DNA of 64,000 nucleotides, from contig CAYODQ010000001.1 in the NCBI GenBank assembly GCA_964402785.1, positions 18,124-82,123 of the forward strand. The letters are read 5' to 3'. The position numbers were made by a program, and so were the translations under genes. The stretch's first letter is position 1, and every line of letters begins with the position of its first letter. This DNA is from an uncultured Planctomycetia bacterium (GTDB lineage: Bacteria; Omnitrophota; Gorgyraeia; 2-02-FULL-51-18). Below, in pieces: positions 2,428 through 61,897 of this stretch. Under the pieces are notes generated by a model that saw only the letters and a list, made by a program, of their open reading frames with translations, was not told the origin of the DNA and searched no databases.

Positions 2428-3588
2428 GTGAAAAATAAAACATCCTATATTTTGATCGGCATTTCTCTTCTTTTCTTTCCCGTCATCTTGTTTTTGAGCC
2501 CATCTTTTGCCGGTTGGCAAAATGGTTTTGGATCCAAGACGGAAGCGGATCAGATCGGAACCGTGATCGCGATGGTCAAAGAAGGTTATGTTGAGCCGGT
2601 TGATAGTTCAAAATTGGTGGCGGGGGCGTTGACCGGCATGCTCAAGACATTGGATCCGTATAGCCTTTATTTGGATCCGGCCACCTACGAGGAATTTAAG
2701 CGTGACGCGGGCGGCGAGTTTGGCGGAATAGGCCTTGAGGTTAGTATCAAAGGCGGCCCTCTTCATGTATTGTCGCCATTGGATGGCTCTCCCGCAGCTC
2801 TGGCGGGCCTTAAGCCGGGTGACATGATCTTGAAGATCGACGGCGTCGCCACCAAAGATATGTCGATGTTGGAGGCTGTCAAAAAAATGCGCGGCAAGCC
2901 CGGCAGCCATGTCAAACTCACGGTGATGCGAGAGGGTGAAAGTAAGCTTTTAGAGTTCGATATCGAGCGCCAAAAAGTGATTGTGGAGGGCGTGCGTGAA
3001 GCCAAAGTGTTGGAAGGCCAGGTCGGTTATATTCGTATCGCGGAGTTTCAGCGCTCGACCTCGGCTGATTTCAAAAAAGCACTTCACGCGCTTTTGTCTC
3101 AAAATATCAAAGCTCTGATCATTGATGTGCGTAATAATCCCGGTGGTTTATTGCACAGCTCATTGCAAGTTTTGGAAAATTTTCTTCCTGAGAAACATTT
3201 GATGCTGGTGACCAAAGGCCGAGATCCCAAAAAGAATCGCAGCTATTATTCACCGCGTAAAAAAGCGGGTGCTATCGAATGGGGATCCAAGCCCATCGTT
3301 GTCCTGATCAATCGCGGCAGCGCCAGTGGTTCGGAGATCTTGGGAGGTGCTTTGCAGGATACGGGTTTGGCCAAGCTTGTGGGCAGTAGGAGTTATGGAA
3401 AAGGCTGTATTCAGACATTGACGGCCTTGGATAAGGGCGGGGCTGTGCGTATCACCACGAGCCGGTATTATACGCCCAATGGCCGTCTCATTCATGAAGT
3501 GGGGCTGGAGCCGGATGTATCCGTGCCTGATAATAAAGACAATGAGGATGCTCCGCTCAAAGAAGCGCTCAGGATATTAAACGCATGA
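2428..3588 (+). CDS. ctpA: Carboxyl-terminal processing protease (S41 peptidase with PDZ domain), secreted
   Basis: N-terminal TM/signal, PDZ region (GGIGLEVS..LKPGDMILKIDG), S41 catalytic region (LINRGSASGSEIL..GKG); GTG start. Confidence 0.9.
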   Translation: MKNKTSYILIGISLLFFPVILFLSPSFAGWQNGFGSKTEADQIGTVIAMVKEGYVEPVDSSKLVAGALTGMLKTLDPYSLYLDPATYEEFKRDAGGEFGGIGLEVSIKGGPLHVLSPLDGSPAALAGLKPGDMILKIDGVATKDMSMLEAVKKMRGKPGSHVKLTVMREGESKLLEFDIERQKVIVEGVREAKVLEGQVGYIRIAEFQRSTSADFKKALHALLSQNIKALIIDVRNNPGGLLHSSLQVLENFLPEKHLMLVTKGRDPKKNRSYYSPRKKAGAIEWGSKPIVVLINRGSASGSEILGGALQDTGLAKLVGSRSYGKGCIQTLTALDKGGAVRITTSRYYTPNGRLIHEVGLEPDVSVPDNKDNEDAPLKEALRILNA

Positions 3589-5905: not shown

Positions 5906-8608
5906 ATGAAATATATTTTGTTGGATGGTAATTCGTTCTGTTACCGCGCCTTTTACGCGATCCGCGATCTTCGCACATCCAAAGGTGAGCCCACCAACGC
6001 CATCTATGGCGTGATCGTGATGCTGGAGAAGATCGTTAAACATATCAAGCCGGATGGCGTAGCGGTCACTTTCGACTTAAAGGGCCCCACCCATCGCCAT
6101 GAAAAATTCGATCAATATAAGATCCACCGGGCACCCATGCCGGGTGACCTGGTGAGCCAGATGCCCAAGATCAAGGAAGTGATCGAGGCGATGAATATCC
6201 CCATTTTTGAAAAAGAGGGCTACGAGGCCGATGACATCATCGCAACGCTCGCAACCCATCTTGAAAAAAAAGGCCACGAGGTTTTTATCGTCACGGGCGA
6301 CAAAGATATGATGCAGCTTGTGACCAAGAAAGTAAAAGTGGTCAACCCGCAAAAAGATAATCTGGTTTACGATGCGGCAGAGGTCACCAAAAAATTTGGC
6401 GTGGGGCCCGATAAGGTAGTCGAAATATTGGCGCTCATGGGGGATGCCTCCGATAATATTCCCGGCGTGCCGGGGATAGGGGAGAAAACAGCGACCACCC
6501 TCGTGACGGAGTTTGGCTCCGTTGAGAATCTTCTTAAGAATTTAAATAAGTTCGACGCTCTTTCCAAGCGCTATCCCAGGGTTTTTACGGATAAGCTGAA
6601 AGAGAATTTACAGAAACACAAAGAAGACGCGGTTCTTTCCAAAGATCTTGCCACCGTGATGCGCGATGTACCGATAGACTTTGATGTGGAAGGTATGCGT
6701 ATTCAGGAACCCAATCAAAAGAAGCTCACGGATCTATATCAACAATATGAATTTCGCACGCTGCTTAGGCACGTGCCATCAACCGAGCCCAAGAATGCCG
6801 ATGACAAAGAGCTGTCGTACCATCTCATCACCAGTAAAGATGGTTTTGAGGCGCTCAAGAAAAAGCTTTCTTCGCATAAAAAATGGGCTTTTGATTTTGA
6901 AACCACGGATGTTAACCCCATGATCGCAAAGCCTGTGGGAGTCTCATTTTCTTTTAAAGCCAGAGAGGCATTTTTTGTTTCTTTTGCAGGAGAACTCAAA
7001 GCCAAAGATTGCCTGCATTCTCTTAAGAGTCTTTTTGAGGACAAACATTTCTTAAAAGTCGGCCAAAATATCAAATACGAGATCATGATCTTGAAGAATT
7101 TTGACATCGATCTACAGGGAGTAGATTTTGACACTATGGTGGCTTCTTATTGCCTCAATCCCGCTAAACCCAATCACAATTTGGATGATATTGCCATGGA
7201 GCATCTGGGTGTGAGGATCACCGATATCGTGGAGCTGATCGGCACAGGAAAAAGTCAGATCACCATGGATCAAGTCGATCTCGACAAGCTTTATCGATAT
7301 GGCTGCCAGGACAGCGATGTGACGCTGAGGCTTTCAGATGTGCTCTCCCAAAAACTCGAAGAAAAAGACCTGATGACACTTTTTAGGGAGATCGAGATGC
7401 CTCTTGTGAAAGTGCTGGCCGATATCGAGTTTGCGGGTGTGGCTATCGATACTCAGATGCTAAACGATCTATCTCGGGAGATGGAGAAGAGTTTGGCCGA
7501 GCTGACCAAGACCATCCACAAAGAAGCGGGGGGTGAGTTCAATATCAATTCGCCCAAACAGCTGGCAGAGATTTTGTTTGAAAAGCTGGGCCTTCCTATG
7601 GTAAAAAAGACTAAGACAGGCGCATCCACGGACGTGGGGGTTCTTCAAGAGCTTTCCGAAATTCATTCTCTTCCCAAGGAAATACTTAAATTCAGAGAAC
7701 TTTCGAAGCTAAAATCGACCTACGTAGATGCCTTGCCGGAGCTGGTCAATCCCCATACAAAAAGGGTGCATACCTCCTTCAACCAAACCGTGACGGCTAC
7801 GGGCCGGTTATCCTCGACGGATCCGAATCTTCAGAATATACCCGTTCGTACGGCTGAAGGACGAAAGATCAGGCGTGCATTTGTGGCGGGATCGCCGGGT
7901 GCCGTGTTGCTTTCGGCGGATTATTCTCAGATCGAGCTGAGGGTATTGGCGCATTTGTCGGGCGATGAGAAATTGATAGAAGCTTTTAAAAAAGGCGCGG
8001 ATATTCACCGGTTCACAGCGGCGCTCATTTACAATGTCGATATCAAGGATGTGACCGACACTATGCGGTCTTCGGCCAAAACGGTTAATTTTGGCGTGCT
8101 GTATGGGATGGGCGCTTTTAGCTTGGCCAAAAGCCTGGGTATCAAGAATGATGCCGCCAAAGATTTTATCAAAGCTTATTTTGACCGCTATCCGAGCGTG
8201 AAAGCGTATTTGGATAGCTCGATCGAAAAAGCGAAAAAAGACGGGTTTGTTTCAACGGCGTTCAAAAGACGCCGCTATATTCCTGAGATCCACTCGAGCG
8301 ACCCTAGGGTCAGGAGTTTTGCGGAACGCACCGCGATCAATGCTCCGCTTCAGGGTACGGCAAGTGACGTGATCAAGATCGCCATGATCCGTATCGCAGG
8401 ACTATTCGAGAAAAAGGGGATCAAGACCAAGATGATCTCTCAGGTGCATGACGAGCTTTTGTTTGAAGGCCCGCAAGCTGAGATCAAGCAGATCGCGGAT
8501 CTTGTCCGAAGGGAGATGTCGGGTGCTGCGGATTTTGTGGTGCCGCTTGATGTGTCAGTGAAGATCGGGCCCAATTGGCTGGATATGAAAGAGATTGATA
8601 ATAAATGA
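5906..8608 (+). CDS. polA: DNA polymerase I (5'-3' exonuclease, 3'-5' exonuclease and polymerase domains)
   Basis: 900 aa; N-terminal FEN-like region, polymerase motifs RRAAKTVNFGVLYG and QVHDELLFE. Confidence 0.97.
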   Translation: MKYILLDGNSFCYRAFYAIRDLRTSKGEPTNAIYGVIVMLEKIVKHIKPDGVAVTFDLKGPTHRHEKFDQYKIHRAPMPGDLVSQMPKIKEVIEAMNIPIFEKEGYEADDIIATLATHLEKKGHEVFIVTGDKDMMQLVTKKVKVVNPQKDNLVYDAAEVTKKFGVGPDKVVEILALMGDASDNIPGVPGIGEKTATTLVTEFGSVENLLKNLNKFDALSKRYPRVFTDKLKENLQKHKEDAVLSKDLATVMRDVPIDFDVEGMRIQEPNQKKLTDLYQQYEFRTLLRHVPSTEPKNADDKELSYHLITSKDGFEALKKKLSSHKKWAFDFETTDVNPMIAKPVGVSFSFKAREAFFVSFAGELKAKDCLHSLKSLFEDKHFLKVGQNIKYEIMILKNFDIDLQGVDFDTMVASYCLNPAKPNHNLDDIAMEHLGVRITDIVELIGTGKSQITMDQVDLDKLYRYGCQDSDVTLRLSDVLSQKLEEKDLMTLFREIEMPLVKVLADIEFAGVAIDTQMLNDLSREMEKSLAELTKTIHKEAGGEFNINSPKQLAEILFEKLGLPMVKKTKTGASTDVGVLQELSEIHSLPKEILKFRELSKLKSTYVDALPELVNPHTKRVHTSFNQTVTATGRLSSTDPNLQNIPVRTAEGRKIRRAFVAGSPGAVLLSADYSQIELRVLAHLSGDEKLIEAFKKGADIHRFTAALIYNVDIKDVTDTMRSSAKTVNFGVLYGMGAFSLAKSLGIKNDAAKDFIKAYFDRYPSVKAYLDSSIEKAKKDGFVSTAFKRRRYIPEIHSSDPRVRSFAERTAINAPLQGTASDVIKIAMIRIAGLFEKKGIKTKMISQVHDELLFEGPQAEIKQIADLVRREMSGAADFVVPLDVSVKIGPNWLDMKEIDNK

Positions 8609-8734
8609 AGAGTTCGGGGTCCTGCCGCTGCGCCAGCTCGTTTTTCAGCAAGTGCTTCGCCTTGCCGAAAAACAAGCACTCTGGCTCCGCGTCACCCCTC
8701 ACTGCTGCTATTGGCTATTTGACATCTTTATAAT

Positions 8735-10759: not shown

Positions 10760-12019
10760 ATGGATATAGATTTAGCGAAACTTAAGAAAATGAAAATGTC
10801 GGAGCTGAACGACATCGCCCATAAGATGAAAGTGAATGGTGTCAGCGGACTCAAGAAACAGGATCTGATCTTTAAGATCCTGCAGGCGCAGCCCGAACAG
10901 GATGGCGTCATGACGGGGGAGGGTGTACTGGAGATCCTGCAGGACGGCTTCGGATTTTTACGCTCACCCAATTACAATTATTTGCCTTGCCCGGATGATA
11001 TTTATGTATCTCCGTCTCAGATTCGCAAATTCAATTTGCGCACGGGTGATACTGTAGCCGGTCAGATCCGCCCGCCCAAAGAGGGTGAGCGTTATTTCGC
11101 CATGCTGATGGTGAACAAAGTGAACAATGAGTCGCCTGGTGATGTGCGCGAAAAGGTGCTGTTCGATGACCTGACGCCCATTTATCCAAACCATAAATGG
11201 CAGATGGAGACGGGCGGTTCCGACGTATCGACACGCATTTTAGATCTATTGGCTCCTATTGGTATGGGTCAGCGTGGTCTTATTGTGGCGCCGCCCTACA
11301 GCGGTAAAACCGTGCTGATGCAGAAGATCGCCAATAGCATCACCACCAATCACCCGGATGCGGTGATGATCGTGCTTCTCATCGATGAGCGCCCGGAAGA
11401 AGTCACGGATATGCAACGCCTGGTGAAGGGTGAGGTCATAAGCTCCACCTTTGATGAGCCGGCTGAGCGTCATGTGCAGGTGGCTGAGATGGTGTTGGAG
11501 AAGGCTAAGCGTTTGGTTGAATGCAAAAAGGATGTTGTGATCCTTTTGGACTCGATCACTCGTCTCGCACGTGCCTATAACACAACTGTCCCACATTCAG
11601 GTAAGATACTGTCAGGCGGTGTGGACTCGAATGCGCTTCACAAGCCCAAGCGGTTCTTTGGTGCTGCGCGCAGCATCGAAGAGGGCGGCAGTTTGACCAT
11701 CATCGCGACGGCTCTGGTGGACACGGGCAGCCGCATGGACGAAGTGATCTTTGAAGAATTTAAGGGTACCGGTAATATGGAAGTTCAGTTGGATCGCAAT
11801 TTGTTCCAACGCCGTATTTATCCGTCTATCGATATCAAGCGCTCCAACACAAGGCGCGAAGAGTTGTTGGTGGAAAAAGATGACTTGGCCAAGATATGGA
11901 TCTTGCGCAAAGTGTTGAATGAACTGAGTAGCGCGGAAGCGATGGAGCTTTTGATCGATAAGGTCTCAAAGACCAAAACGAACCGCGAATTTTTGAAAAA
12001 TATGAACAAGGTGTCATAA
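10760..12019 (+). CDS. rho: Transcription termination factor Rho (full length: N-terminal RNA-binding domain + ATPase domain)
   Basis: N-terminal Rho_N/CSD-like region; P-loop APPYSGKT; Q-loop and R-loop motifs ([20 protein letters not shown]). Confidence 0.97.
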
Positions 12020-12030
12020 AGGAGAAAGTC

Positions 12031-12237
12031 ATGAAAGAGAAGATACATCCCAAATACAACGAGACGACGATCACATGCAATTGTGGCAATGTGATCCACA
12101 CGCGCTCGACCAAGCCGAATATCCGCGTGGAGATCTGCGCCAACTGTCATCCGTTTTTCACGGGACAACATAAGCTTATCGACAGCGCCGGACGCGTCGA
12201 GAAGTTCCAAAAGAGATACAATAAGAAGGCAAACTAA
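12031..12237 (+). CDS. rpmE: 50S ribosomal protein L31
   Basis: [29 protein letters not shown] zinc-ribbon L31. Confidence 0.95.
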
Positions 12238-12384
12238 AAATCTGCTGAAAAAGCCTCATCTGCGTTGTTGTGCCACTCGTTCGCTTGTGCCTGCCTGCCG
12301 ACAGGCAGGCGACGCTATTCCCATAGCGCCTCCGCGCTCACTCGTGCACGCCTAGCATATGAGGCTTTTTGAGCAGATTTTTAG
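12238..12384. repeat. MITE-like palindromic intergenic repeat, copy A (terminal inverted repeats ATCTGCTGAAAAAGCCTCAT / ATGAGGCTTTTTGAGCAGAT), carrying a 22-nt near-perfect palindrome core GCCTGCCTGCCGACAGGCAGGC at 12289-12310
   Basis: Long hairpin directly after rpmE stop; the reverse complement aligns along its length with the element at 61664-61790 except for the core insertion. Confidence 0.7.
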
Positions 12385-12422
12385 TTTTCTCTATATATAA
12401 ATTTTTATAATCGATTGATCTG

Positions 12423-13484
12423 ATGAGATTTATCAAAAAAGTAGAAGAGAAGGTCAGGCGCTACGAAGAAGTTCGTAAGCTCCTAGAAGATCCCACGGTG
12501 ACGAGTGATCAAACCAAGTTGCGCGATCTGGGTAAGGAGTTCCGTGCCCTTGAGCCCATCACGTCTCTCTTTAAGAATTATCTCAAAGCCCAGGAAGAGA
12601 CCGAGGAAGTTCAAAAAATTTTAAATGACAAATCCCAGCCTGCCGACATGCTTGAGATGGCGAAGGCCGAAGCGGCTTCTTTGGAAACGCAGCTGAAGCA
12701 GATCACCAAAGACATTGAGGGTTGTTTGATTCAAGAAGACCCCATGCTTCAGAAAAACGTGATCCTGGAAATTCGGGCAGGAACGGGAGGTCTTGAAGCG
12801 GGTCTTTTTGCAGCTGAGCTGTTTCGTATGTACACCCGATTTGCTCAAAAGCTGGGTTTTAAAGTAGAGGTGTTGTCTAGCTCGCCCAACGAAGCGGGTG
12901 GCCTCAAAGAACTCATCGCCAATATTTCCGGCTCCGGCGCTTATGGTAAGTTTAAGTTTGAGAGCGGCACGCATCGTGTGCAGCGCGTACCCGCGACCGA
13001 AGCTTCTGGCCGTATTCACACATCCGCTGTCACGGTCGCTATTATGCCGGAAGCAGAGGAAGTCGAGATCGAGATAAAAAATGAAGATCTTCGCATCGAT
13101 GTTTTTCGCTCCGGCGGCCCTGGCGGTCAGAGCGTCAACACCACCGATTCAGCTGTCCGTATCACTCATATTCCTTCGGGTTTGACCGTCAGTTGCCAGG
13201 ACGAGAAATCACAACTGAAGAACAAACAAAAAGGACTCAAGATCCTTCGTGCACGTTTGTATGACAAGATCACTTCCGAGCGCAATGCTGAGCTGGCCAA
13301 ACAGCGCAAAGAGCAGGTGGGTTCGGGTGATCGCAGCGAAAAAATTCGCACCTACAATTTTCCTGACAGGCGCGTCACCGATCATCGTATCGGGCTGACT
13401 CTGTATAATCTTGAAGCCGTGATGGAGGGGGAGATCGGCGAATTCGTCGAAGCCCTCTTTCAGGCAGAGCTGGAGAAAATGTGA
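12423..13484 (+). CDS. prfA: Peptide chain release factor 1
   Basis: GGQ motif SGGPGGQSVNTTDSAVRITHIPSG; followed by prmC. Confidence 0.96.
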   Translation: MRFIKKVEEKVRRYEEVRKLLEDPTVTSDQTKLRDLGKEFRALEPITSLFKNYLKAQEETEEVQKILNDKSQPADMLEMAKAEAASLETQLKQITKDIEGCLIQEDPMLQKNVILEIRAGTGGLEAGLFAAELFRMYTRFAQKLGFKVEVLSSSPNEAGGLKELIANISGSGAYGKFKFESGTHRVQRVPATEASGRIHTSAVTVAIMPEAEEVEIEIKNEDLRIDVFRSGGPGGQSVNTTDSAVRITHIPSGLTVSCQDEKSQLKNKQKGLKILRARLYDKITSERNAELAKQRKEQVGSGDRSEKIRTYNFPDRRVTDHRIGLTLYNLEAVMEGEIGEFVEALFQAELEKM

Positions 13485-19123: not shown

Positions 19124-19235
19124 GCGCCTGAGCTTTCGTATGCCCTGGAGGCTTAGGATCCTCTTAGCTGTGCTTCGGGGTTTCCTGAGAAACCCCCTTG
19201 TCGCGTTTGAGCGCGTTAGTCAAGTGACAATCGAA

Positions 19236-19811
19236 ATGAAATCCCTTTATAATTTCAAGCTCCATATTCATGGCGCTGATTTTTTACGCGATCTTGTTGA
19301 TGCATCTTCACAGCTTGGTATGAAGCCCTTTTTAATGTGGGGCACGCTTCTGGGTCAGGTGAGAGAGGGGCGGTTTTTGGAGCATGACTATGACATTGAC
19401 CTGGGGATGCTGGACGATGATTACGCCAAAAAGGACGAACTTATTCGTGCAATGAAAAAAAGAGGTTATAAGGTTAGGCATGACGTGCCCTACTCATTAT
19501 CTTTTGTAACGGCCGATGGATTGCTATATTTGGATATCGATCGTATTTACAAGCACAAGGGTAAAATGATTCAGTCCGCGCGATCGGAGCTCTCGGGCGA
19601 GATCACGGCATATCATTATCCAGACCATGTGTTCAATGAGTTCGTATCAAAGATTTTTGTCGCTGGGATCCGTGTGTGGGTACCGACGCGTGCGGAGGAT
19701 TTACTGGAGTCGATCTATGGCGATTGGCGAACCCCGGCCAAGGACTATAATTATATGACCGGCCCTCGAAACGCCATCACCGATCAGGATTTTTTGAAAA
19801 CATTAAGATAG
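19236..19811 (+). CDS. LicD-family (nucleotidyltransferase-fold) phosphotransferase; start trimmed to ATG19236 (the listed ORF start at 19050 overlaps guaA in another frame)
   Basis: MWGTLLGQVREGRFLEHDYDIDLGM matches the LicD DxD-containing core. Confidence 0.68.
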   Translation: MKSLYNFKLHIHGADFLRDLVDASSQLGMKPFLMWGTLLGQVREGRFLEHDYDIDLGMLDDDYAKKDELIRAMKKRGYKVRHDVPYSLSFVTADGLLYLDIDRIYKHKGKMIQSARSELSGEITAYHYPDHVFNEFVSKIFVAGIRVWVPTRAEDLLESIYGDWRTPAKDYNYMTGPRNAITDQDFLKTLR

Positions 19812-19862
19812 GGCAACAATGCCAGCTAGTGTGATATTATTAACAACAAATGGAGGGTTCGT

Positions 19863-21705: not shown

Positions 21706-21737
21706 CTCTTTTTATATTTCTCTCTCACGCCTATCAT

Positions 21738-22024
21738 GTAGTCGGTAACAGGTTTCGCTTTTGCCCACCCTTGCCCTTTTCCTCGCATAGCTTTGTCATA
21801 AATGGCATGGACCCCTGCCTGCCGGCAGGCAGGCTCGCCAAAAGTCCGTTGGCCTCGAAGGTACACTCGTGCGGTATGCCTAAAAGAGCCATGACGCACT
21901 CGCGCTATATTAAAGGCTCGGCCAATGGGACTTTCAAGTGGCGTCTCCATTGCCATTTATGACAAAGCTATAAGCGCTCGGAAAAGGCCGGGATTGGTCA
22001 AAAACGAAACCTGTTACCGACTAG
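21738..22024. repeat. Giant imperfect palindrome G1 (about 290 bp, nested inverted repeats) containing a perfectly palindromic 20-mer CCTGCCTGCCGGCAGGCAGG at 21814-21833
   Basis: Outer arms GTAGTCGGTAACAGGTTTCGCTTTTG / CAAAAACGAAACCTGTTACCGACTA; inner arms CTTTGTCATAAATGGCATGG / CCATTGCCATTTATGACAAAG. Confidence 0.65.
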
Positions 22025-22092
22025 ATGCTAGACGGGCACTCGGCTATTAATTGATCTATCAGGGCGAGTGCCAGTTTAGAGCCTAAGCCGTT

Positions 22093-22333
22093 GCTCGATC
22101 TTTGTTTTCTTTGTTCCCGGCCCTTTTGGAGCGCTTATGGTTTTGTTGTAAGTCGTTTGGAGACGGCACGAGCCCTGAGTTTAGAGTCTAGCGAGCTGGA
22201 AATCCACCGGACGCTTCGCCCTGTTGATATAGGACTACTACCGAAGCGTCTTGGATTTTGTCCGAGGATCCAAATGACTTACAACAAAACCATGCGAGAA
22301 AAGGGGTAAGGGCAAAGAAAATAAAGATCGAGC
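22093..22333. repeat. Giant imperfect palindrome G2 (about 240 bp), related to G1 (shared CCTTTTCCGAGCGCTTAT-like arm motif)
   Basis: Arms GCTCGATCTTTGTTTTCTTTG..CCTTTTGGAGCGCTTATGGTTTTGTTGTAAGTC / GACTTACAACAAAACCATGCGAGAAAAGG..CAAAGAAAATAAAGATCGAGC. Confidence 0.6.
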
Positions 22334-22378
22334 GACGGCTTGCATCTATGACTTAGAGAGATAATTGAAAGGTTCTTC

Positions 22379-40676: not shown

Positions 40677-41242
40677 TCTTGTATCTTGCATCCACATCTC
40701 CTCGCAGGATTTTTTTGCTCAAACAAGCGGGATTTAAGGTTCAAAAAATAAAACCCGTCTACACCGAGGTGGATCACAAACATTTATCCACACAAGAGCT
40801 GATCAAAAAGCACGCACTGGGCAAAGCGTTGTCGGCTGCTCATCAGGTCAAAGAGGGTATCCTGGTTTCTGCGGATACGCTGGTGGTTTTTCAGGCTCGC
40901 CGCATTGGGAAACCCAAAAATATAAAAGATGCTTATCGCATCCTATCCATGCTTCAGGGCCGCACGCATGTTGTGTGGACGGGTGTAGCGGTGCTGAAGA
41001 TCTTGGGAGGCAATATCCAGGCGCAAAAATATTTTGTGGTAAAAACTAAAGTTAGTTTAAAGCCCGTCGGAAGAAGTCAGATGAAAGCCTATTTTAAACG
41101 TATCAACCCGCTCGATAAGGCGGGCGCCTACGCGATCCAGGCCCAAAAAAATAGTATCGTTTCTAAGGTGATTGGCTCATACACCAATGCGGTGGGTTTG
41201 CCGATGGAGAAATTGAAAAAAGTGCTGGATATGCTAGAATGA
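40673..41242 (+). CDS. maf: Maf-like nucleoside triphosphate pyrophosphatase
   Basis: MILYLASTSPRR; ATGA overlap with upstream gene. Confidence 0.9.
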   Translation: MILYLASTSPRRIFLLKQAGFKVQKIKPVYTEVDHKHLSTQELIKKHALGKALSAAHQVKEGILVSADTLVVFQARRIGKPKNIKDAYRILSMLQGRTHVVWTGVAVLKILGGNIQAQKYFVVKTKVSLKPVGRSQMKAYFKRINPLDKAGAYAIQAQKNSIVSKVIGSYTNAVGLPMEKLKKVLDMLE

Positions 41243-41261
41243 GTTTTTGCTAGAGGAGATT

Positions 41262-42710: not shown

Positions 42711-42966
42711 GGCCGTATTGTAACACGGTAATGGTTCAAATGCCGGAAACCACCCTCTCCAGGACCGTCTGATTTCTCCCACCGAGAGAAATCAGACTCG
42801 GAAATCTCCTCGCTCGTCTTTCTGTATAAATAGCTAAAAAAGAATGCAAAACCTAGAGGTGACACCTGGCCGCTCGTCGATTTAACGTCCCTCCGAGGGC
42901 GCTTTCCGGCATTTGAGCCATCCAGAAAAAATATTCCAAGTTCCTGCCAAATACTGGAGTTCCGAT

Positions 42967-61239: not shown

Positions 61240-61658
61240 AGGTTCAGGTATCCAAAAAATCGTTTCTATCCCTCGAATCGGTTGCCATGACGGATATCGT
61301 GATGAATTTATTCATATTCTTTTTTATCAGCTTTAGCTTGCTTTACACATTCAATCCCAACAAAGAATCCAAGATCGAGGTCAAGCTTCCCGAGGGCGTC
61401 ACTCAAAAGGAAGGGAAATCGGAAGAGCCTCTTGTGATATCGATCACCGCAGGAAACGAGATCTTTGTGGGGTCTACCCGCGTATTGCCCGACGCCATCA
61501 AAAAAGAAATAGAAAAAAGAAGTCCTTCCGAAAAAAAATCAGGGGTCCTGGTCAAATCCGATAAATCCGCCTCGGTGGATTATCTGGTCAAAGCTCTGGA
61601 CGCCGCCAAACAAGCCGGAATTCAGAAGCTAGGCGTCGCCATCCAACAGCAAGGGTAA
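61236..61658 (+). CDS. exbD: ExbD/TolR biopolymer transport protein
   Basis: N-terminal TM MTDIVMNLFIFFFISF, periplasmic ExbD fold motifs. Confidence 0.85.
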   Translation: MKVQVSKKSFLSLESVAMTDIVMNLFIFFFISFSLLYTFNPNKESKIEVKLPEGVTQKEGKSEEPLVISITAGNEIFVGSTRVLPDAIKKEIEKRSPSEKKSGVLVKSDKSASVDYLVKALDAAKQAGIQKLGVAIQQQG

Positions 61659-61663
61659 CAGAT

Positions 61664-61790
61664 AATAATCAGCTTAAAAGCCTCAGATGCGAGGCGCGAG
61701 AGAGCGAGCGAGGAGGCGCTATGGTAATAGCGTCGCACAAGCGAACGAGCTGTGTAACGACGCAGATGAGGCTTTTTGAGCTGATTATTA
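61664..61790. repeat. MITE-like palindromic intergenic repeat, copy B (same family as 12238-12384, opposite orientation, lacks the palindromic core insert)
   Basis: TIRs ATCAGCTTAAAAGCCTCAG / AGATGAGGCTTTTTGAGCTGAT; internal GAGGAGGCGCTATGGTAATAGCGTCGCACAAGCGAACGAG matches reverse complement of copy A. Confidence 0.7.
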
Positions 61791-61897
61791 AGATTTGTTA
61801 AAAATTAGTGTAAATCTGTTAAAAGATATGGTAGAATTCTGAAGATATAGGAAGCCAGCTTGGTCACGGCAAACTTTTAGGAGAAAAGAGGAACCAT

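Follow-up and report, generated by a model that had tools for sequence, protein, structure and literature searches.

What fills the spacer between the genes for ribosomal protein L31 (rpmE) and release factor 1 (prfA) in an uncultured Omnitrophota bacterium, and how might it have come to lie there? We address this question for a 64,000-nt stretch of contig CAYODQ010000001.1 (assembly GCA_964402785.1), hereafter the window, in which the 185-nt rpmE-prfA spacer is occupied by a long hairpin that we call element A. A small non-coding size (about 50-500 bp), terminal inverted repeats and dispersed copies constitute the anatomy of MITEs, short for miniature inverted-repeat transposable elements. 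Element A is probably a copy of a MITE-like family of repeats of ~130 nt, and the 20 nt nested within it are in all probability a separate, ultra-small palindromic unit, CCTGCCTGCCGGCAGGCAGG, referred to below as the 20-mer.

Results

Element A and its second copy in the window

Element A (positions 12233-12384, + strand) is a 152-nt member of the ~130-nt family in the family's forward orientation. It is abutted by the stop codon of rpmE (12031-12237, + strand; PF01197 on the orthologue) and followed by prfA (12423-13484, + strand; PF03462 and PF00472). Its arms at 12231-12263 and 12355-12387 are 33 nt each and 94% complementary, and its RNA fold has a minimum free energy (MFE) of -78.7 kcal/mol compared with -41.7 ± 3.4 for shuffles (z = -10.75). 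An earlier note, made from the DNA sequence alone, had described a palindromic element of ~150 bp after rpmE whose reverse complement aligns with positions 61664-61790, and both parts of this description hold. The counterpart, element B (61662-61792, - strand), is a second family copy in reverse orientation directly after exbD, with a hairpin at 61664-61790 (MFE -62.1, z = -7.56). Element A on the + strand aligns over its full length with B on the - strand and carries 20 extra bases; with these removed, the two are 83.1% identical over 130 nt, compared with 74% in the same-strand comparison. The similarity covers the entire element and is not limited to GC-rich stems, and nhmmer gave E-values of 1e-30 or below.

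The note had also pointed to an extra palindrome of 20-22 nt in A. This is the 22-mer GCCTGCCTGCCGACAGGCAGGC at 12289-12310, of which only the inner 20 nt (12290-12309) are extra. The inner sequence, CCTGCCTGCCGACAGGCAGG, is one base (the central A) off the perfect form of the 20-mer and folds as a 9-bp side hairpin of its own. B lacks it, as do 32 other family members and the orthologue of A in a close relative described below.

The stop codons of both upstream genes coincide with the ends of the repeats. The rpmE stop TAA (12235-12237) falls inside the TA-containing terminus of A, and the exbD stop TAA (61656-61658) lies within the TA terminus next to B, where an outer inverted pair, TAACAGAT (61656-61663) and ATCTGTTA (61814-61821), surrounds the element. 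No open reading frame (ORF) was found inside A or B (130-152 nt).

A family of repeats dispersed over several phyla

One representative genome per species was scanned for the pattern AAAAGCCTCA-N75-105-TGAGGCTTTT, which gave 99 loci, and about one third of these were clear homologues of A and B beyond the two pattern words they share. A profile search yielded 33 full-length family members in addition to fragments, and A and B were the only members in the window. At least 13 copies lie on different contigs of one Omnitrophota assembly (JACPAX01), eleven of the copies there having a mean pairwise identity of 87%, and at least seven copies were found in the 'Deltaproteobacteria' assembly JACRNL01. 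The family also occurs in five Planctomycetia-type assemblies (four labelled Planctomycetia and one Planctomycetales), in one Bdellovibrionota assembly and in further delta-type assemblies, and a longer, weakly matching variant is present in Woeseiaceae and other Gammaproteobacteria. As for the window itself, the homologues of its PrfA and ExbD that carry an organism name are nearly all from Omnitrophica or Omnitrophota. The MITE-like reading of the earlier note agrees with these results: the element is ~130 nt long and non-coding, has inverted ends, reaches at least 13 copies in one Omnitrophota genome, and is multi-copy in other genomes besides the two copies counted in the 64-kb window.

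The consensus ends of the family read YTAR + CAGTCTGCTG-AAAAAGCCTCA ... TGAGGCTTTTT-CAGCAGACTG + YTAR, and RCAGNCTGNTGAAAAAGCCTCA was taken as the family end sequence. Forward-strand matches to the profile scored above 100 bits and reverse-strand matches ~25 bits, which gives the family a polarity: its ends are inverted, its interior is asymmetric, and it has a small apical hairpin. Rfam returned no match at the gathering score over the whole window, and at E ≤ 10 its sole match at the locus was a chance SAM-VI hit inside rpmE. In the literature searched, we found no published account of the characteristic end words of the family, or of Omnitrophota MITEs relevant here.

Several members carry additional sequence. 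The member at L014 3927-4176 (Omnitrophota JACPAX01) has two more nested palindromic inserts of ~53 and ~70 nt, one in each arm, both of which begin with TCCGCC, finish with GGCGGG and have GGACGGACCCG in common; the nesting of small palindromes is therefore not peculiar to the window. An extra partial right end (CATGAGGTTTTTCAGCAGACTG) follows the family copy at L088 3552-3580 and at L022 about 3035-3065, and the JACRNL01 copies are trailed by a conserved tail of ~25 nt (CGCGAGTATATTAGTTTTTCAGCGCC). Such extra right ends and tails suggest that elements inserted twice, in tandem or with a later deletion, or that a longer subfamily exists.

Positions of the family members

The family members are intergenic. 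About 20 of roughly 30 members have the stop codon of a gene no more than 61 nt away, and in 11 cases this codon overlaps the beginning of the element. Members stand in both orientations to the upstream gene, about 11 of them forward and 9 reverse. The termini read YTAR + CAG.CTG..., and the rpmE and exbD stops belong to such termini. The flanks are often YTAR or TA, and they are the same on both sides at four loci (L032, L096, L079 and L080), among which only L080, with TTAG/TTAG, distinguishes a direct from an inverted repeat. This placement would fit insertion at TA or YTAR targets, of which stop codons are the commonest sites. The copy number and dispersal of the ~130-nt element suggest that it is, or was, mobile.

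Several observations weigh against mobility of this kind. In many copies YTAR flanks just one of the two ends, and the flanks of element A itself (CTAA/TTAG) can be read as a continuation of its inverted repeat rather than as a direct repeat. The fetched loci contained no pairs of family ends 0.7-2.5 kb apart, no transposase and no full-length insertion sequence. We found no alignable empty site for the ~130-nt element, the rpmE-prfA spacers of two more distant Omnitrophota (L227 and L228) holding unrelated palindromes. Finally, a T-G wobble is invariant in 33 of 33 members and interior motifs are kept across phyla, neither of which is predicted by a pure selfish repeat.

Covariation in the family stems

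The consensus fold of the family consists of 37 pairs, of which 22 vary on both sides; the search pattern itself demanded the 11 innermost stem pairs, which are invariant for that reason. Paired cells amount to 95.5%, compared with 82.5% in column shuffles, and double-change cells to 156, compared with 48.6 (0 of 500 shuffles reached 156). The covariation score is 0.359 for the structure and at most 0.075 for slid-register controls. One-sided changes of the G-U type are almost absent from the stems, and such Watson-Crick-only variation is expected if pairing must hold on both strands. The interior motifs conserved across phyla are GCGTTGC and GCGCCTTG. All 33 members have GCCTCA...TGAGGC followed by TTTTT (AAAAA on the other strand), a part that was fixed by the search pattern.

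Could the family instead be a structured RNA maintained by its hosts, such as a cis-regulatory element or a small RNA gene, with the copies as functional paralogues? Strong covariation would be expected of such an RNA, as would the invariant wobble, the conserved interior motifs, and the retention of orthologous copies with compensatory change. However, the copies stand in both orientations relative to the upstream gene, one of them is flipped in place between close relatives (see below), the neighbouring genes are unrelated, and a single genome can hold at least 13 copies. The near absence of G-U changes fits a constraint on two strands, members overlap stop codons, and no Rfam family matches. 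On balance, we consider the structured RNA unlikely and prefer a MITE-like repeat.

Orthologous loci in a close relative

The assembly GCA_021733565.1 provides a direct comparison at both loci. Its rpmE-prfA spacer (L226; PrfA 89% identical) contains the same element, 90.8% identical to A, in the same place and without the palindrome: the window reads ...CGCTTGT[GCCTGCCTGCCGACAGGCAG]GCGACGC... and the relative ...CGCTTGTGCGACGC... at this point. The nested palindrome is an exact 20-nt insertion without target duplication, so that the secondary insertion proposed in the earlier note is recorded at an orthologous site. The boundary of the insertion can be placed only to within one or two bases (G/GC); the 20-mer CCTGCCTGCCGACAGGCAGG fits between an outer G and C, and the relative shows that those two bases belong to element A. 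The presence of all or none of the 20 nt at the orthologous site argues against a stepwise local origin of the palindrome. The outer stem differs by a double compensatory change, TCTG/CAGA in the window and TTCG/CGAA in the relative, and thus the stem has been kept paired in place.

Element B is likewise found in the same spacer of the relative, between exbD and a helix-turn-helix (HTH) gene (L264; ExbD 94% identical), where its asymmetric interior is inverted compared with the window while the inverted ends and flanks are unmoved. On the simplest reading, the interior would have flipped through recombination between the inverted ends of ~22 bp, or through a template switch from one to the other. 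Such an interior flip would account for the equal frequency of the two orientations and for the tolerance of Watson-Crick pairs only. In-place inversion has been reported for Correia elements (PMC10969869). Since A and B are common to the relative at the same loci, they are old residents rather than recent arrivals.

Farther away, two Omnitrophota with PrfA 78-80% identical (L227 and L228) have no family member in the rpmE-prfA spacer and hold other, AT-rich palindromes there (L227 890-1000 and L228 850-1000). L228 has another palindrome at 520-643, between rho and rpmE, and on the contig of P0124 the gene calls abut prfA and leave no spacer. The site behind rpmE seems to be repeatedly refilled with hairpins. 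These unrelated palindromes suggest that some hairpin is wanted at the site, which is what one would expect if A were a lineage-specific terminator hairpin, its likeness to B a coincidence and its inner palindrome a product of local slippage. This explanation is hardly credible given the 83% identity of A and B over 130 nt, the dozens of homologues elsewhere, and a 20-mer identical to copies in other DNA (at least 120 metagenome and 35 viral stretches).

A terminator-like role of a MITE-like copy is another matter. The arrangement A5-stem...stem-T5, alike on both strands, could function in either direction as a hairpin that is terminator-like or stabilises RNA at gene 3' ends, and this would explain the pairing preserved in place. 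For element A, we infer such a role from its architecture, its placement at a gene 3' end and the preserved pairing, and it is a prediction from sequence. A scan for promoter and terminator consensus sequences called neither A nor B, because the enclosed 'loop' of about 100 nt is far above the limit of the scan. A terminator role has been considered plausible for elements like SPRITE (PMC10969869).

The 20-mer in the window and beyond

A second copy of the 20-mer, in the perfect form, lies at 21814-21833 of the window, in which none is expected after shuffling. Its host, F2a (21728-22034), is a palindrome of ~300 nt belonging to a different family (DNA MFE -94.4 kcal/mol, z = -11.6), and its left arm alone carries the 20-mer, as an unpaired side branch. 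F2a and its neighbour F2b (about 22088-22345), another large palindrome of this second family, occupy the spacer at 21706-22364 between a TfoX_N-domain gene and an mgsA/rarA-like gene, and their arms are related to each other. No homologue of F2a or F2b, the embedded 20-mer aside, was found in the fetched loci.

Metagenome contigs were scanned for CCTGCCTGCCGNCAGGCAGG, which gave at least 120 stretches with mutually unrelated flanks. The GC content of their hosts is between 0.29 and 0.71 (median 0.42). We estimate that a handful of the matches in very GC-rich contigs could be due to chance, and that those in AT-rich contigs are not explicable in this way. The 20-mer was also found in 35 stretches of viral contigs, with up to six copies in one contig of 29.5 kb. 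The ~130-nt family was not found in the viral contigs or among the 120 listed metagenome loci of the 20-mer, save for one weak partial match (L110). One Planctomycetia contig (L096) holds both the 20-mer and the ~130-nt family.

No base exceeds 35% at any flanking position over 116 copies, and among these copies we found neither a conserved target nor a GTAG/CGTC tag. The base is identical on both sides of the 20-mer in 42 of the 116 copies, with about 27 expected, and this excess could mean a 1-nt duplication in some events. There is a weak excess of copies in which at least 8 of the 12 immediate flank bases are paired (9.5% vs 5.4% of controls). A preference for hairpin targets, suggested by the location of both window copies in large palindromes, was considered and rejected: the joined 40+40-nt flanks have an MFE of -18.3, compared with -18.05 at random positions (p = 0.40). 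Tolerance of the site is a simpler reading than targeting.

The 20-mer within genes and tRNAs

At some sites, the 20-mer lies within coding sequence. An open frame of at least 60 codons on each side runs through the 20-mer in 23 reading frames, which correspond to fewer copies because several frames stay open at one site in very GC-rich contigs. The reading in AT-rich hosts is invariably C|CTG CCT GCC GGC AGG CAG|G, that is, LPAGRQ, and this peptide is found in SecA, ATP synthase alpha (AtpA), PheS, LysS, PurH, a CopA-type ATPase and a GH115-like enzyme. The SecA host belongs to Nomurabacteria/Paceibacterota of the candidate phyla radiation (CPR), and we compared it with 120 homologues of 78-82% identity. 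The site is empty (RLAK|GETLDDIL) in many of the 120, and LPAGRQ is intact in five. Some homologues show decayed forms (LPAGKQ, LPAGSQ and LSAGRQ), many have an AT-rich filler of 7 residues at the same spot, and one has LPAGRQ elsewhere. The filled secA alleles contain a near-consensus, GC-rich 20-mer within AT-rich genes, in at least two to three junction arrangements. Just upstream of the in-frame 20-mer in one CPR secA gene (L192 about 1170-1200), GGCAGGAAGG-CG forms a near copy of the right half of the palindrome, which may be the remnant of an earlier or rearranged insertion.

A complete viral tRNA-Met (L253) contains the 20-mer at position 45 as a long variable arm, and ARAGORN calls this tRNA-Met both with and without it. 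Four further loci were considered as insertions into tRNA genes and rejected: at L180, L189, L139 and L260, ARAGORN finds no complete tRNA across the site, with or without the 20-mer, and each site has on one side a sequence that does not resemble tRNA, so that these are read as tRNA fragments. The 20-mer occurs in tRNA-like fragments at L180 641-700 and 815-880, L189 1-60, L260 about 490-560, L139 325-385 and L230 about 8590-8660, where its spots are the junction of D-loop and D-stem (GGTA|GAGC), the start of the T-loop and the variable region. The fragments adjoin intact tRNA genes and, in L180, also a small, putatively GIY-YIG-like ORF.

What kind of sequence is the 20-mer?

The occurrence of one perfect 20-bp palindrome in very different organisms has a parallel in conserved protein-binding sites such as parS or CIRCE, and an operator-like or parS-like palindrome might have arisen or been selected in place rather than copied as DNA. 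This origin is very improbable, because the 20 nt are all present or all absent at an orthologous site, and copies are located in protein loops, a tRNA variable arm and other palindromes without any recurring gene context. Moreover, the 20-mer stands out as an island of high GC content where the genome has 30-40% GC, and it decays after insertion, as seen in LPAGKQ and LPAGSQ.

Repetitive extragenic palindromic (REP) elements offer a closer model. As a rule, REPs are lineage-specific. The 20-mer matches REPs in being a short, GC-rich palindrome, in size (21-65 bp for REPs; PMC3184786), in leaving no target duplication and in its mostly extragenic position, as would be expected of an ordinary REP mobilised by a REP-associated tyrosine transposase (RAYT). 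However, it lacks the conserved GTAG or CGTC head and any conserved flank (for these defining tags, see PMC3733652), its copies are single rather than inverted doublets, its sequence is identical across phyla and viruses, some copies are in frame within essential genes, and no Y1/HUH gene was found in ten ORFs near multi-copy loci. An ordinary REP element is therefore a doubtful identification.

We see about an even chance that the 20-mer is an undescribed, ultra-small mobile unit, identical across Omnitrophota, Planctomycetia, Nomurabacteria/Paceibacterota and viral contigs, which would insert without duplication and independently of the target and persist in selfish palindromes, tRNA arms and protein loops. 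Three points weigh against it or against its movement by hairpin transposition. The coding copies add a net +21 or +18 nt and not +20, so that the insertion product varies. The same ten ORFs beside multi-copy loci encoded no transposase either. Lastly, elements of the IS200/IS605 and REP types use a conserved adjacent tetranucleotide or pentanucleotide, and a 20-mer without a conserved flank does not fit transposition of these types. In the literature searched, we found no published account of the 20-mer, of an LPAGRQ insert or of palindromic in-frame insertions in Patescibacteria.

Other features of the window

The gene order around element A is rho (10760-12019), rpmE, prfA and prmC, all on the + strand. 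A compact hairpin of 17 bp at 8636-8677 (GCTCGTTTTTCAGCAAG / CTTGCCGAAAAACAAGC) follows an ORF of 900 residues with its end at 8608. The stem is of an ordinary, terminator-like kind, and its word TTTTTCAGC resembles the ends of the ~130-nt family. A third long inverted repeat at 42731-42921 has arms of 27 nt with 89% complementarity and 137 nt between them. It is located upstream of the start of a minus-strand gene for dihydrouridine synthase, or overlaps that start, and a 48-nt piece of it matches L136. The gaps between the larger called ORFs at 19124-19862 and 40677-41246 are unusually long (739 and 570 nt); neither has an Rfam match or a long hairpin.

Discussion

Taken together, the two loci suggest the following course of events. 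The ~130-nt family would have spread across Omnitrophota and several further phyla, most of them associated with groundwater. Its resident copies would then persist and evolve as hairpins, by compensatory changes in the stem, by interior flips as in B and by landings of palindromes as in A. The 20-mer would have entered A after the lineage of the window split from its closest sampled relative. It would survive at sites that tolerate a GC hairpin, namely intergenic DNA, selfish palindromes of other kinds, the variable arm of a tRNA, and surface loops of proteins, where it would form an in-frame insert of 6-7 codons reading LPAGRQ. Our leading guess, held with low confidence, is that the 20-mer was moved as a single-strand hairpin, by transposition like that of REP/RAYT or IS200/IS605 and without duplication. 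If it is a mobile unit, its driver would have to be an enzyme that recognises the palindrome and is widely shared, possibly through phages.

The ~130-nt family would add an ERIC/SPRITE-like repeat (ERIC, enterobacterial repetitive intergenic consensus) to phyla without such an element in Rfam or in the literature searched, and two genomes display the whole life of a resident palindrome, from compensatory evolution of the stem through in-place inversion to secondary invasion. For annotation, it should be borne in mind that many stop codons in these genomes sit within repeat termini. A length of 20 nt marks the bottom of the size range in which anything is believed to move; REPs, at 21-65 bp, are among the smallest repeats described (PMC3184786). 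If the movement is enzyme-driven, the enzyme would recognise a 20-bp palindrome and paste it without leaving a footprint; such an enzyme would be interesting for its mechanism and possibly for practical use. The 20-mer would also serve as a marker of recent DNA exchange among uncultivated groundwater lineages.

Comparison with known palindromic repeats

The closest counterparts of the ~130-nt family are ERICs, also called intergenic repeat units (IRUs; ~127 bp), including the Yersinia ERICs. Both are imperfect palindromes of similar size with inverted ends, occur in both orientations, are intergenic and often located at gene 3' ends inside transcripts, and consist largely of old resident copies. 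In Yersinia, ERIC affects the fate of mRNA (PMC10969869). There is no sequence relationship, and the hosts of ERIC are Enterobacteriaceae and Vibrionaceae, whereas the family spans several phyla, including Omnitrophota and Planctomycetia. Pneumococcal repeats resemble element A as small repeats with a terminator-like fold, and they are reported to insert into one another (PMC10969869, PMC3184786), a nesting comparable with that in A and L014. They are unrelated in sequence, and the hairpin of A, whose role is predicted, is far longer than a canonical terminator. Correia elements of Neisseria, known as Correia repeat enclosed elements (CREE) or Neisseria miniature insertion sequences (NEMIS), share with the family a size of ~100-200 nt and TA-containing inverted ends, and their in-place inversion parallels that of B. 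They are processed as an RNA hairpin (PMC10969869). Sequence and host are again unrelated, and the Correia promoters and IHF site are unseen in the family.

As for the 20-mer, REP elements and their doublets (REPINs) are likewise very small, GC-rich, mostly extragenic palindromes that insert without duplication, but the 20-mer has no GTAG/CGTC tag (PMC3733652), forms no doublets, is not lineage-specific, and is found in frame in genes and in viruses. Rickettsia palindromic elements (RPEs) are the precedent for palindromic selfish DNA in frame in housekeeping proteins (PMC10969869, PMC3184786). RPEs are, however, ~105-150 nt long and confined to Rickettsia, whereas the 20-mer has 20 nt (6-7 codons) and a cross-phylum distribution. 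Small dispersed repeats of cyanobacteria, reportedly described by Elhai et al. in 2008 as 'very small mobile repeated elements' of 20-odd nt, are said to insert into other repeats, and the GC-cluster palindromes of yeast or algal mitochondria are GC-rich sequences that invade AT-rich genomes, coding regions included. Both differ from the 20-mer in sequence and hosts, and to our knowledge cross-phylum identity is not a described feature of either.

Judged by its sequence and placement, the ~130-nt family thus appears to be a new family that works like the ERIC, Correia and SPRITE elements and is unrelated in sequence to all three. Nesting, inversion and compensatory change are known behaviours of bacterial palindromic repeats, and all three are documented here directly. 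The 20-mer is unusual among such repeats in that one identical sequence occurs across phyla and viruses.

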